Of a stretch of 64,000 nt of DNA, positions 31,463-45,300 are shown piece by piece. The DNA lies in NCBI GenBank assembly GCA_013239625.1, contig MU055549.1, positions 372,001 through 436,000 on the forward strand, in the 5' to 3' direction. Position numbers and translations under genes: made by a program. Numbering within the stretch: position 1 is the stretch's first letter; the number at the start of each line of letters is the position of its first letter. The notes below the pieces were generated by a model, which was not told where the DNA came from, ran no database searches, and saw nothing but the letters and a program-made list of their open reading frames with translations. This DNA comes from Lama guanicoe (taxonomy: Eukaryota).

Positions 31463-31468
31463 TTTATT
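31463..31468 (-). terminator. VENTX polyadenylation signal (candidate)
   Basis: AATAAA on the minus strand ~365 nt beyond the ancestral stop. Confidence 0.6.
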
Positions 31469-31896
31469 TTTTCCAACTGGAAAGCCAGTTTTCCAGCCCC
31501 TTGAGCTGAGTAAGTTACCCTTTGTTGTGTGGGAGCCCAACGCGGCACAGCGCGCTTGGCTTCCGACTGTTTGCCGACCCAACATTTTCCACGCCAACCC
31601 TTCAGCACTTTTCAGAGGGGAATAGGCTTCAGAATGTCTTCAGCTATAAATCCCCAGTCTTAGGCGGGGCCAATTGCAGGCCCCACCGCTGGGGGGGCAC
31701 AGGCCCACGCCAGGACATCACAGTGGTGTAAATACAGACCAGGCTGTCTCTCCAGGCAGATGCCAGGTACCGCTGCGCACACCCAGCACATCTGATACAC
31801 CGCAGCCCTGGGCGTCAGCTGCCTCCCTTCCTCAAAAGGCATCCCCAGTCGCTGGTGGGGCGCACAGGCCCCAGGCTCCCCTGGACAAAGCTGGGC

Positions 31897-32205
31897 TCAG
31901 TGTGTGCACCCAGCCCCCAGTGTCCGGGAGGCAGCACACCGGAGGCAGCACACTGGAGGCTGCCTGCTGCATGAGGCCCACACTGAAGCCAGGGAGGCTG
32001 GTTTCACCCCTCGGGGACACCAGAAAGAGCCCAGAGGCTGGACCAGAGCTGGGGGCCCAGGCAAGGAGGCCCAAGGGCAAAGCAGCTGCAGGCGGCTGTG
32101 CAGGGCAGGGGGTGGGTGGAGGGGTGCGGAGAAGGGTGGACTCAGCTGGGAGTCCTGCAGCTGGCGCTTGTGCTTCATTCGGCGGTTCTGAAACCAGGTC
32201 TTTAC
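31897..32205 (-). CDS. VENTX: VENTX exon 3 (recognition helix and C-terminus)
   Basis: ccacag|VKTWFQNRRMKHKRQLQD...LQLLCPWA...; stop TGA 31897-31899 follows the 14-nt duplication. Confidence 0.88.
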   Translation of the reverse strand, partial: VKTWFQNRRMKHKRQLQDSQLSPPFSAPLHPPPALHSRLQLLCPWASLPGPPALVQPLGSFWCPRGVKPASLASVWASCSRQPPVCCLRCAASRTLGAGCTH

Positions 32206-33875
32206 CTGTGGGGAAAGTGAGATCAGAGAGGGGGCGGCCACAGGCCACCACCCTGCCTGCCGGCCACCTCACCTGCACTTCGGAGAGCTGCATCTCCTGG
32301 GCCAGCCGCCGGCGCTCCAGGGGCCCCAGGTAGCGGCGGTGCTGGAAGGAGCTCTCCAGGGCGCTGACCTGCTCCACCGTGAAGGCCGTGCGCATGCGGG
32401 GAGCCCGCGTGCCGTCCGCCTCCTTGCTCGGCCCTGAGGGGGACAGAAGGGCACCCAATCCATTTGGCTGGAAGTGCTGCCCGGTGGGAGAAGTGGGGAC
32501 AGGCTTCGTGCTTGTGGATGGTAGCTGGGGCCTCGGGGAGAGCAGCCCCCCCGCCCCCGCCTCTCTCCGGAGAACAGCCCATCCTGCTCCGCCGTCCTGC
32601 TGGGTCAAGGAGAGCCACTCCCCCTCCAGCTCAAGTGTGGAATGGGGCCCAGAAACGTGGACGTTGGCAAGAAGACAACAGAGCGGACAGCAATTCTGAC
32701 GCCGGCCCCTCACCCTCTGCCTGGGATGCGCAGTCCCTTCCAGAAAGCAGTGTGTTTTGCCTGCAGACAAGGAACTCCCACTCGCTGGGTGGGGTGGGTG
32801 GCCATGGGGGCCGAAGCCCACCCCAGGCAGAGGCCCAAAATCCTCGGAAAGCCTTCTCACGAGTTCTGCCTCGGGTGTACCCGTCCCTGAGACCCAGGCT
32901 CTGTCACCACCAGCCGTGTGTCTCAGGCAGGCCTGTTCTCCTAATAGCTCAGTCAGGACATGCAGGGAGCACTAGCGCCCCCCAGGAGGCGACGAAGTCC
33001 CCATGGTCATCATTTAAACTTTTTCTTAAAATAAAAACTTACAGATAATATCAACCCCACTTTTGGCCACTTGAAACCTAAAAACAGCCATTAACTCACA
33101 AGGACTGAAAGACAGACTAAGAACGTCTTAGCCAACGACAAAGGGTTCCATCGAGTCTGGAAACCACAGGAGAGCAAATGGCATCCAGGCCGTGGCTGCC
33201 CTTAAGCAAGCCTGCAGGCCCCCCATCAGCCGGTGAACCGGCCGCAGTCTAGATGGCAAAGGAGGGCGCCAGCTTCGCAGGCAGGGCCCAAGACCCCTCT
33301 GAATGAGCTGGTGAGACGCACTTCCCCACGGCCCTCTTGCAGAGGTGCACCCCACGGGCTCATCTCAGAGCCTGAGTCACAGGCACCAAGTGCTAGTGTA
33401 GGCGCAGTGGCTCACTGCGCCGGTGGGCCGGCCCCAGGAGGCCCGGGGGCTGAGCAAGGAAGGCCCCCGTTGTAGCCTTTGCTTCCCAGGGGAAGCGTTC
33501 ACTTGCAGGAGGTGTCAGACTCCACCCTAAGCCTCAGCCTTGGCAAGAATGTCCCTCTGATGACCAGGGTACACGGATGTGGCCGGGGTGTGACCCTCTT
33601 TCTGACCCCCCTCCCGGACTCCCATCCCCACACCTACCAGCTGCGGGCGTCCCCGGTGCAGACACTTCTGAGAGCTTCACCTCCTCCATGTCCACAGTCT
33701 GGTGGGGCTCCCCTCTGCAGTACACCTGGGCTGAGGCAGACAGGCTCCCCCAGGAGACTTCGGCAGGCCTGGAGGTGTGCGCCGGCCCTGTGTGGCTGCT
33801 CTGGGAGAGCCAGTCCACTGAGCCAAAGCTGGAGGTCCGCTTGCAGCCACCAGGTAGGGCGGAGGATGGAGGCAT
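31897..33875 (-). CDS. VENTX: VENT homeobox (NK-like homeodomain), 3 exons, 235 aa as read; C-terminus frameshifted (ancestral stop at 31832-31834)
   Basis: exons 33638-33875, 32273-32433, 31897-32205 sum to 708 nt; SSFGSVDWLSQSS N-terminal motif; homeodomain RMRTAFTVEQVSALESSFQHRRYLGPLERRRLAQEMQLSEVQVKTWFQNRRMKHKRQ. Confidence 0.93.
32273..32433 (-). CDS. VENTX: VENTX exon 2 (homeodomain helices 1-2)
   Basis: cctcag|PSKEADGTRAPRMRTAFT...QLSEVQ|gtgagg. Confidence 0.95.
33638..33875 (-). CDS. VENTX: VENTX exon 1
   Basis: ATG at 33875, MPPSSALPGGCKRTSSFGSVDWLSQSS...PAA(G)|gtaggt. Confidence 0.9.
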
Positions 33876-34200: not shown

Positions 34201-34649
34201 CACAGTTGGGGGAGAGGTGGTAACCCGGGACTTGCTACATCCCTTCATCTCCCCCACCCCCACCCGCTGGCCTGCGCTGTGGGAAGGTTAGGGTGGCCCC
34301 CTCCCACCCAGCACCCCAGCTGGGGGCTTGTCCTATGGGGTGCCGAGCTATCTCCTCTCTCCAGGTTGGCTCGCCACCTTGTCCCCGTGGGTCTGCAGTG
34401 ACGGATGTGCACACCTGAGGGAGCTGGAGGTCCCCATGGCCACTCCCAGGACAGCGTGGACTTGGCCAGTGCCCTGTCTGCTGCAACCCGGTGGCCCCGC
34501 TGCGTAGGAATGTAGGGCTGGCAACGAGCCAGACAGGGTGGGAGGGGCTGGTCAGAGAGGGTCCCTCCGGCTCCGTGGGCCCTTCTCCCTCGCCGCCCCC
34601 AATCTCTCTGCTGGGTTTCACTCTGGTGCCATAGGAGCTGCAGGGGGTG

Positions 34650-35400
34650 ACGGCCTGGGGACGGTCACCGGTCCCTGCCCTTGGCGCCGCGGTCGCTTCA
34701 CTCCTCTTCGGCCGCGTCCGCGTCCCGGGCGCCCCACTGGCCTTGGGGAAGGGCTCGACTAGGCCTGGGACGCCGGTGCTCCGCGGGGAGGCGGAGGGCT
34801 GGGCAGGACCTCTCCCTCGATCTTGGCCGGACCGCGTCTGTCTCCTCGGTGCTACCCGGCAGACGGACACGTGGTGCGTCCTACGTGACTGCAGGGCAGT
34901 CCGCGAGGACCCAACCGGCAGAAGCCGCATCCCCCGGAGCGCGGGCTCTGGGTCCGCGCTGAGCCCCCGGCGGCCGGAGTCGGCCCCCAGCCCGCCGCAG
35001 GGTTTCCGAGGGGACGGGTGGAGTCAGCACCGTCGACTCCCGGGGGCGCCGGCGCCAGCCTAGGCGGAGCACCAAGCCGCCTCCGCGCCCGCCCCGCCGC
35101 GCGGACATCAAAGGCCCCGCGGGCTTCGCCTCCGAATTATCACCCCAACGCCGCCTTCGAGCCCGAGGGGCAGGGCGGCGGGGCTGGTGATGCGGGAGCC
35201 TGACACAGCAGGGAACCGGCAGGCCCTGACCGCAGCTCTTCCTCTGGCCCTTGGGCCGGCTCAGTTCTGTCACCGGACCCGGCGGGGTGAGGCCGGGGAC
35301 TAAAATCACTTGTGTGTAGCTGGGGTGTCTACTGGGAGGCTGCAGGGTGTCCTGGAAGTCGTACGGCCACAGGGCTGCTCCAGGGACGCCCGCGCGCATG
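34650..35400. promoter_or_regulatory. CpG island upstream of VENTX
   Basis: markedly higher CpG density than the flanks. Confidence 0.7.
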
Positions 35401-35595
35401 CTTCCAGCTCCGCAGCGACAGTGTCTGTTTCAGAATCGGGCGAAAGCGTCTGAGCTGGGAGAGGGTGCTGCGTGGAGGCCCTCCGGGAGGGACAGCAGTG
35501 GAGGCCTGGGGGATAAATACCCCCCCAACGACTGCTCAAGGTGCACACTACTTCATCATGTGCTCAAAAGCACTAATTTACAAGTTAAAAAAATT

Positions 35596-43394: not shown

Positions 43395-43879
43395 TCACTG
43401 GCGCGGGTCGGTCAGGACGCCGCGCTCAGCGGCAGCGCTGCCCAAGATGAAGCCCACGGCCAGGGACACGGTCTGGTCGAAGGAGCCACGCAGCTGCTCC
43501 ACGTGCTGGTTCAAGGTCAGCAGCTGGTCACGCAGCGGGCCCAGGATGGACACGATGTCGCCCAGGTGCCCCAGGGTCTGCAGGAGGGCGGCGTTCAGCG
43601 ACGGCGGCGCAGACTGCGGCGGCGCGTGGTCCTCCGGGCGGCCGGGCGGCGAGTCGGAGTCCTCCCGGGCGCGGCCGGGGGACGGCGGCGGTGGGGAGCA
43701 GAGGGGGCGGAAGGGCTCGGGGTCCTCGGGGCGGTCGGGTGCCGGGATGAAGGTGGAGAGCGCCGTCGGCGAGCTGGGGGCGCGGGGGTCTTCCGCAGAC
43801 TTGGGCGGGGACGGGCTGAACCTGAGCGTCCAGGCGGGGTCCGCGTCGGGACCTCGGGCGGCGAGCAGCTGTGGGGCGC
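43395..43879 (-). CDS. UTF1: UTF1 exon 2
   Basis: ttccag|[27 protein letters not shown]...GVLTDPRQ*. Confidence 0.93.
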
Positions 43880-44623
43880 CTGGAACGTGGAGCTGGTGGT
43901 CGGATGCGGCGCGGGGGGCGTGCCCGCCGCTCCTCCGGCGCCCTCTCCCGCCCCAGCCCCCCTCCCTGGCTCTCGGGCCCGGGACGCGCCGCCCCTCCCC
44001 CCAGCCCGCTGCCCCCGCTCTCCAGTCTGGGGCGCTCCCGCCCCTTCCCCTCCCCCAGCCCACCTACCCGGCTCAGCGGGCGCGGCGGGGGCCGGCCGGC
44101 GGCCGCGCGGAGGGCGCCCGGGCCCGGGGGAGCGGCGGCGGGCGCGTCTGCGTCCGTTGTCGCCCAGCAGCCCCATGAGCTGGCGGATCTGCGCGTCGAA
44201 GGGCCCGGGCGGCTGGCCGTGCGCGTCGCGGACCTTGTCCTTGAGGAACTTGTAGCGGCGGCGGCACTGCGCAGGGGTGCGCCGCACTTGCTGGCGGGCG
44301 AGCGCGGCCGACACGCGGCGGTAGGTGGGCAGGGCCTGGCGGCGGTCCAGCAGTAGCGCGCGCCACACGGCCGGCTGCAGCAGCGTGCCCAGCAGCAGCT
44401 CCGTCTCGCGCGCGCTCCAGGGCGTGCGCTGCGCCGAGCGCGGGGACACGGGCAACCCGGGGGACGCGGGCGACCCGGGGGACGCGGGCGCCGCCAGCGC
44501 GCCGGGCGCGGCGGGCCGCCGGGGCGGGGTCCCGGGGACGCCCCCCGCCAGCCGCGGCTCGAGGTCCGGGCTGGCAGGAGACGGCGGCGCGGGCGGAGGC
44601 GGCCGCCGGGGCCGGAGCAGCAT
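43395..44623 (-). CDS. UTF1: undifferentiated embryonic cell transcription factor 1, 2 exons, 346 aa
   Basis: exons 44068-44623 and 43395-43879 sum to 1041 nt; [10 protein letters not shown] start, Myb/SANT-like domain ([19 protein letters not shown]...[11 protein letters not shown]), C-terminal leucine zipper ([17 protein letters not shown]). Confidence 0.97.
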
Positions 44624-44800
44624 CCCGGGGCCGGCGGGCGGGCGGGGGTTGGCGCCGAGGCCCGAGGGAGGCCGCCCACACGAGCTGGGAGGACCCTGCG
44701 CGTCCGCCGTCGGTCGGAGCGGCAGCCGGAGCCCAGCCGGGTCTACGCGGCCCTCCCACCGCTCCGCCCCGCCCCGCCCCGCCTCTCCGCGCGCCAAGTT
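43400..44800. promoter_or_regulatory. CpG island covering UTF1; GC-box promoter at ~44760-44785
   Basis: very high CpG density; tandem ccgccc GC boxes upstream of the ATG; no TATA seen. Confidence 0.8.
44068..44623 (-). CDS. UTF1: UTF1 exon 1
   Basis: ATG at 44623; ...PAAPAEP(G)|gtaggt. Confidence 0.93.
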
Positions 44801-45300
44801 CAATCTGACTGCTCTGGGGCCTTGGTCTCCAGGCCAGTTTTTGGACCCGTAGGCCTTAAGCGCAGGGAGCCAAGCTCTGACCCTGCCTGCGCAGCGGGGA
44901 ACAACCCGCCCAGAAACCGTGTTTGTACTTCTTAAAGTGCTCAGTTGAGGTACAAAAGGACTTGATAACGTGCATTAGGCGCACAGGGTTCGATCCGTCT
45001 TTACGCATGTGCCATGCCCTTTCACCGCTGCGCAGATCAAGCTATGGAACATTCCAGTTCCAGAGGCTCCCTCGCGCCCCCTCCTTTTTCCTTTGGTACA
45101 CCCTAGGTGTTGTTCTAAAACTAATTATATGGTGGCTCCGCCCCCCCTTCCGGTGTGGTTTTAGTCTGCACAGGAGGCGGTGTTCATGCCTGCAGGCAGC
45201 TTCTTGCTGGAGCTGACAAGAACCTGGCCACTGGTCAGACTTAGGGTCGTAATTCACACACATTTCACAGAACAAAACTTCTTTGTTCTGGTAACGAATG

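Follow-up and report, generated by a model that had tools for sequence, protein, structure and literature searches.

Last-exon frameshifts that escape nonsense-mediated decay (NMD) and remodel a C-terminus are a general class of lesion. The VENTX gene of the guanaco shared with this class a stop in the last exon and a short new tail. However, the camelid case is apparently fixed in the family and is not a segregating disease allele. The same gene is dispensable in mouse and rat, where Ventx was lost according to the accessible part of PMC3141429. A preliminary description of the present DNA had given the gene as lost in mouse, which was consistent with this source, and the rat is added there. 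In these rodents the locus was deleted, whereas in camelids the gene, the splice sites and the homeodomain were kept. The beaver also keeps an intact VENTX record. Table 2 of the same paper gives cow and pig as lacking VENTX; it was set aside because it also lists the horse, which has an intact record (P0013).

The closest known sequences are the RefSeq X2 proteins of dromedary and Bactrian camel. These are orthologues with the same tail, and the guanaco protein differs from them by 4-5 aa in exons 2-3. In the case of the wild camel, both repeat units are present as in guanaco, but in the genome record one extra base makes the insertion 15 nt, with the old tail in frame. Remnants of the gene in baleen whales (Rice's, blue, humpback, gray and bowhead) change frame at the same codons as the camelids. 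However, the whale change is a deletion and not a duplication, as read at the protein level only, and the whale homeodomains are degraded.

The VENTX gene of guanaco and the 14-nt repeat in exon 3

The window, by which we mean the whole 64,000-nucleotide stretch of guanaco DNA that was analysed, carries VENTX on the minus strand. The gene has three coding exons with GT-AG splice sites, an intact start and a stop at 31897-31899, and it encodes 235 aa. Coding exon 1 (33638..33875, 238 nt from the ATG) matched residues 1-81 of rhino VENTX at 69%. Exon 2 (32273..32433, 161 nt) encodes homeodomain positions 1-44, as given by Pfam PF00046 and the rhino match. It is followed by intron 2 (32206..32272), which has 67 nt and no stop on read-through. 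The coding part of exon 3 as read (31897..32205, 102 codons and a TGA) holds helix 3, the proline-rich region, the duplication and the new tail. The new out-of-frame tail of 14 aa with its stop (31897..31941) is identical in the dromedary and Bactrian records. The ancestral tail of 31 codons with its stop (31832..31927) is now out of frame or 3' UTR, and its 31 residues were replaced by 14 unrelated ones. A likely poly(A) signal, AATAAA, was found at 31463..31468 (minus strand), 429 nt downstream of the stop. This agreed with the earlier placement of the stop in the last exon, and escape of the 235-aa transcript from NMD would follow from the standard rule.

The top protein matches were named VENTX proteins, which identified the gene as the VENTX orthologue. 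It is single-copy in the genome: the best 3 of the 34 rhino-VENTX matches were these exons (68-72%), and the others reached 34-50%. The homeodomain is complete with Thr at position 47 (QVKTWFQN), and the Pfam match on the camel protein was above the cut-off. Thr47 is a mark of the Ventx family in the accessible text of PMC8911082. The conserved GDAF-type C-terminus of VENTX is out of frame in the guanaco gene.

Several further features of the locus were observed. By translation, we take the neighbours of VENTX to be UTF1/KNDC1 on one side and ADAM8/TUBGCP2 on the other. A two-exon UTF1-like gene at 43395-44974 (minus strand) is apparently open, with KNDC1-like exons following upstream, and the TUBGCP2/ADAM8-like genes lie at lower coordinates of the window. 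Exon 3 opens with GTAAAG directly after the acceptor CAG (32200-32212, minus strand) and resembles a 5' splice site, owing to the camelid replacement of Ile by Val at position 45 of the homeodomain. Such a start could favour mis-splicing or retention of intron 2. Camelid exon 3 is also without seven codons at about 32100-32140 (minus strand): the stretch between WFQN and the end of the old tail has 116 aa, whereas it has 123 aa in most mammals. This in-frame loss is common to guanaco and the Camelus records. The upstream exon that RefSeq added to camel VENTX is also open in the window (34235-35023) and overlaps a CpG-rich stretch at 34500-35499 (o/e 0.78-0.80). It is probably not truly coding because the records of other mammals are without it. 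In intron 1, a long open frame (32434-32971, minus strand) is used by one Bactrian model; in guanaco its start codon is ACG.

The duplication was detected by TRF as an array of period 14 and 2.4 copies at 31927..31960 on the minus strand. The two units (31946-31959 and 31932-31945) have a single mismatch, 31954 versus 31940. The array is 34 nt long and exceeds two full units by 6 nt (GCCTCC), which represents flanking microhomology; if it is extended, 8 of 9 nt match. A short direct repeat thus flanks the duplicated unit. The coordinates 31927-31954 given in the preliminary description are an equivalent register of the same array. Near-perfect tandem pairs with a period of at least 14 occurred at 4 loci in the window versus 1/6 Markov controls. 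Both frames are mammal-like, one before the repeat and the other after it, and the switch between them falls precisely on the repeat; it is stronger proof of the duplication than the chance count. The duplication claimed earlier was therefore confirmed by the array and the frame switch. When one unit was removed in silico, the 252-aa protein that had been predicted was obtained, with a GDAF end at 31832, and the human VENTX ending given in the preliminary description matched the human record P0038.

Since the array exceeds two units by 6 nt, the 14-nt segment of the single-unit ancestor would have been bounded on either side by GCCTCC. Slippage between these two copies, 14 nt apart, would give a tandem duplication in replication, and slipped-strand mispairing at the 6-nt microhomology is the likely origin. 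The bases of Camelus exon 3 were deduced from two frames (X1 and X2 models), in which 6/774 possible changes are invisible. By this two-frame deduction, the three Camelus records all carry G at the counterpart of 31954, so the copies would have been identical at their origin. The mismatch in the first unit was found in guanaco only, when compared with the dromedary and Bactrian records, and on these sequences it is a later CpG transition. The one-base difference had been used earlier as a clue to the origin; it is uninformative because the other camelids carry G there. The argument that the duplication is old or imperfect because its units differ was rejected, as dromedary and Bactrian camel have two units without a mismatch.

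Sharing among camelids and age of the duplication

The shifted ending of 14 aa was found in the RefSeq X2 proteins of dromedary (P0004 / XP_031317934.1) and Bactrian camel (P0003 / XP_074229427.1), and a read-derived Logan protein (P0088) is also in the duplicated state. The RefSeq annotation does not flag the camel tail as a frameshift product. A search of other camelid assemblies, proposed in the preliminary description, was thus answered by the dromedary and Bactrian proteins. The alteration is not allele-specific, as these proteins have it too. It is not recent either, since the duplication is present in Old World camels and in the New World guanaco.

The placement of the guanaco genome was consistent with this. 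In the upstream model exon, guanaco differed from dromedary and from wild camel at 8/171 aa, and dromedary differed from wild camel at 2/171. An unbroken TAS2R16 of 295 aa was found in the guanaco genome at L008:1501-2388 (identified by PDB 9k6l, E 3e-102). The accessible part of PMC12127551 reports a two-base frameshift of this gene in all three Old World camels, and it dates the split of Old and New World camelids at 16.3 Myr. Judged from these sequences, the guanaco genome is the outgroup to all three Camelus. Because the tail is common to dromedary, Bactrian camel and a New World camelid, the duplication would predate the split, and it likely arose once on the camelid stem, before about 16 Myr ago. 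Among New World camelids, one genome, that of guanaco, was examined directly. The protein matches listed included none labelled as VENTX of alpaca or llama, and no camelid was among the 3 matches of 90 candidates for short read-derived exon-3 proteins. A 15-nt in-frame ancestral insertion followed by one-base losses was rejected because it needs three separate losses, counted on the camel species tree. In addition, cytochrome b-like stretches were observed in large scaffolds of the genome (L002, L003 and L004) with only TGA stops in the match; these are likely young nuclear copies of mitochondrial DNA, and the placement of the genome does not draw on them.

Activity or decay of the 235-aa protein

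The reading that we favour, with moderate confidence, is that VENTX without its tail remains active as a homeodomain transcription factor and that constraint on it is relaxed, after one slippage event in the camelid ancestor. A working protein was preferred to early decay because of the silent excess in exon 3 and the intact homeodomain. DNA binding would be kept through the homeodomain, and co-repressor recruitment would be kept through the N-terminal motif. The FGSVDW motif in exon 1 is intact, and it is the same in the human-type and dromedary records. We take this motif to be eh1-like. NKL factors bind Groucho-family cofactors through an N-terminal motif (PMC8198381, accessible part). The loss of a short motif in an unfolded, conserved tail would produce a hypomorph or a change of partner and not a null.

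The preferred reading draws on the substitutions in exon 3. In the 86 codons before the shift, guanaco and wild camel differ by 6 silent and 3 replacement changes, with 6/4 against dromedary and 7/3 against Bactrian camel. An estimate of dN/dS had been proposed as a check, and exon 3 of guanaco versus Camelus gave an omega of 0.17-0.23, and when the 6/3 and 6/4 counts were tested with four different weightings of mutation, the one-sided p was 0.01-0.05; this signal comes from 9-10 changes in 86 codons, and 4/6 silent changes are CpG transitions. All exon 3 divergence between guanaco and Camelus post-dates the duplication. In the whole protein before the repeat, 8/221 aa differed versus 20/343 in non-conserved read-through frames (Fisher p 0.16). 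The 343 control codons of these frames also stayed open, and for this reason an argument from the open frame to function was rejected.

The homeodomain was consistent with a working protein. Guanaco and Camelus differ at 1/60 aa, and Pfam PF00046 scored 74 bits on the camel protein, in agreement with the earlier statement that the domain is intact. The rhino protein scored 75 bits and that of blue whale 54. At 40 conserved positions, the camelid homeodomain has 3 conservative departures versus 8-10 in four whale records; the 26 intact references carry 0-1, but the same references define the position set. The whale departures include F8S, F20S and Y25C, so that core aromatics are among those hit. 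Counting against a working protein, core identity to nine outgroups was 74% for camelids, 76-80% for other orders and 68% for humpback. The gray-whale value was dropped because that model shifts frame inside the compared region.

The tail itself was also considered. In the predicted structure of rhino VENTX, confidence is high for the three homeodomain helices only, and the pLDDT is about 44 in the tail. Because this model folds at the homeodomain only, no folded domain would have been lost with the tail. The old-tail frame gave no Pfam match, and its 2 PDB matches (E 0.1-0.3) were not meaningful. Two observations on the tail count against the preferred reading. In 24 intact records, conservation of the lost tail equalled that of other parts of exon 3 (0.79 versus 0.75). 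In the case of Xenopus Ventx, the C-terminal regions are repressor domains according to the accessible part of PMC8911082. Six RNA read sets contained 0.26-0.35 of the window words, which is not evidence of expression.

The strongest alternative, which we consider possible but rather unlikely, is that VENTX is dispensable in camelids. The frameshift would then have been fixed by drift within an order-wide loss, and the gene would be a slowly decaying unitary pseudogene. Only 1/10 cetartiodactyl records, that of the wild camel, keeps the old tail, and the other nine are without it. The preliminary description had described a frameshift off a conserved tail, and a GDAF-like terminus was found in 37/48 named non-cetartiodactyl eutherian records, human included, a count that excludes unnamed Logan/ENA rows, several second records per species, non-eutherians and most cluster members. 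The count was made among the 120 of 207 VENTX-like protein matches listed. The tail is conserved in most eutherians outside the order. Lack of the TGDAF ending in related artiodactyls had been named as a refuting condition, and 0/7 non-camelid cetartiodactyl records keep the tail. The 0/7 would reflect order-wide decay and not an unconserved tail, since the models of pig and whales are degraded or incomplete. In pig the homeodomain is broken, and in hippo the sequence departs at an earlier point of exon 3. The whale homeodomains are degraded. No ruminant-named VENTX was seen among the best 50 or the 120 of 207 matches listed, or among the exon-3 matches, which is weak evidence of loss. The loss in mouse and rat (PMC3141429, accessible part), the seven codons missing from camelid exon 3 and a whole-protein divergence not significantly below the neutral proxy were also consistent with decay. 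However, the silent excess in exon 3 post-dates the duplication and disfavoured the early decay that had been proposed. In addition, the homeodomain shows no radical change, and neither the window nor any of the three Camelus records has another lesion. The functional core holds no lesion of a unitary pseudogene; homeodomain, splice sites and start are intact.

Altered or cut tails were also observed in 11/48 of the other eutherian records (pangolin, fruit bat, manatee, elephant seal and some primates), and some of these may be prediction or assembly errors. P0031, P0133, P0084, P0016, P0056 and P0028, from pangolin, fruit bat, elephant seal and manatee, depart from the normal frame within the final third of exon 3. 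The alternative frame of the camelids is entered by several of these non-camelid records, and two Mirounga species agree.

A further alternative is that the old tail is still used, through retention of intron 2 or through an extra base in the wild camel, and has been kept by selection. We regard this as improbable. Intron 2 (67 nt) and the duplication (14 nt) add up to 81 nt, and retention of the intron therefore puts the old tail back in frame. The RefSeq X1 models of dromedary and Bactrian camel (P0067, P0128 and P0130) end in this tail. However, retention removes helix 3, the Pfam match ending at profile position 45, and the exon 3 frame of the X1 form has 7-8/87 aa changed and is also open in a non-camelid record (P0097). 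The intron-retaining ORF of guanaco was absent from the protein collection searched. The old tail is still open in guanaco, with 0/31 aa differences to all three Camelus records and one silent change visible across the four camelids. However, the 0/31 was not significant (1.8 expected, p 0.17). The old tail is 19-22/31 identical to 8/9 laurasiatherian outgroups, and the rhino has a gap.

The wild-camel record bears on the same alternative. In its X2 model (XP_032346489.1), the frame is unbroken across the two units, so that the old tail is retained and the protein gains 5 residues. The X1 model is shifted accordingly, and neither model has an X residue or a low-quality label. Since the two models agree, the assembly has one extra base in the second unit, and a second indel that restores the frame is thus present in the genome record. 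The extra base lies at the same CpG position that mutated in the first unit of guanaco. A compensating insertion and a heterozygous CpG site written as both bases are about equally probable, and a consensus error at a heterozygous site could explain the extra base because it sits at that CpG.

An error of assembly or reads, or an allele private to one animal, is a very improbable explanation and is refuted for the family by the Camelus records: independent dromedary and Bactrian records and the read-derived Logan protein bear the duplication, and the wild-camel record also has both units. Fourteen DNA read sets, under five organism labels, contained 0.97-1.00 of 69 window words, and 11 of the sets reached 1.00. 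Of the words sampled, about 3 were expected to be duplication-specific, but all 14 sets are possible sources, so they were not counted as support.

Literature and meaning for camelids

No paper on the camelid VENTX frameshift was found, and subscription papers, bioRxiv supplements or gene-loss tables (TOGA) may list it. No paper combined VENTX with cetacean inactivation, and those combining VENTX with camel were unrelated, as judged by listing. The camelid comparison PMC12127551 does not mention VENTX, either in its text or in its 6 supplementary files. Openly readable papers yielded no functional map of the C-terminal tail of VENTX in mammals, and PMC5349961 does not mention VENTX domain terms. 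The camelid frameshift is already contained in two RefSeq proteins, though unremarked. As a single lesion it is ordinary, a frameshift in the last exon of a known gene that extends across the family.

A broader proposal is that VENTX has a hot spot in this microhomology-flanked 14-nt segment, with a duplication in camelids and a deletion in whales, amid an undescribed, order-wide loss of the gene in even-toed ungulates, and that the wild-camel base restored the tail after more than 16 Myr out of frame. We regard this as doubtful. In Rice's whale (XP_059756713.1) and a Logan record, 16 and 15 of 23 residues match the frame of a net 14-nt deletion, and the same residues slid by one or two gave 0-1 matches, at the protein level only. 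If the proposal is true, the duplicated, deleted and restored states would be a natural three-state experiment on tail function. Of all the results, the possible reversion in wild camel and the reciprocal deletion in whales most deserve direct confirmation.

VENTX is a regulator of human pluripotency and myeloid cells and has no mouse orthologue. The nine of 10 cetartiodactyl records with altered VENTX suggest that pig, whale and perhaps cattle are without a normal VENTX, and an altered VENTX matters for livestock embryos as models of human development. The camelids would represent a natural truncation of the tail that has lasted about 16 Myr, and the wild camel may be a revertant.
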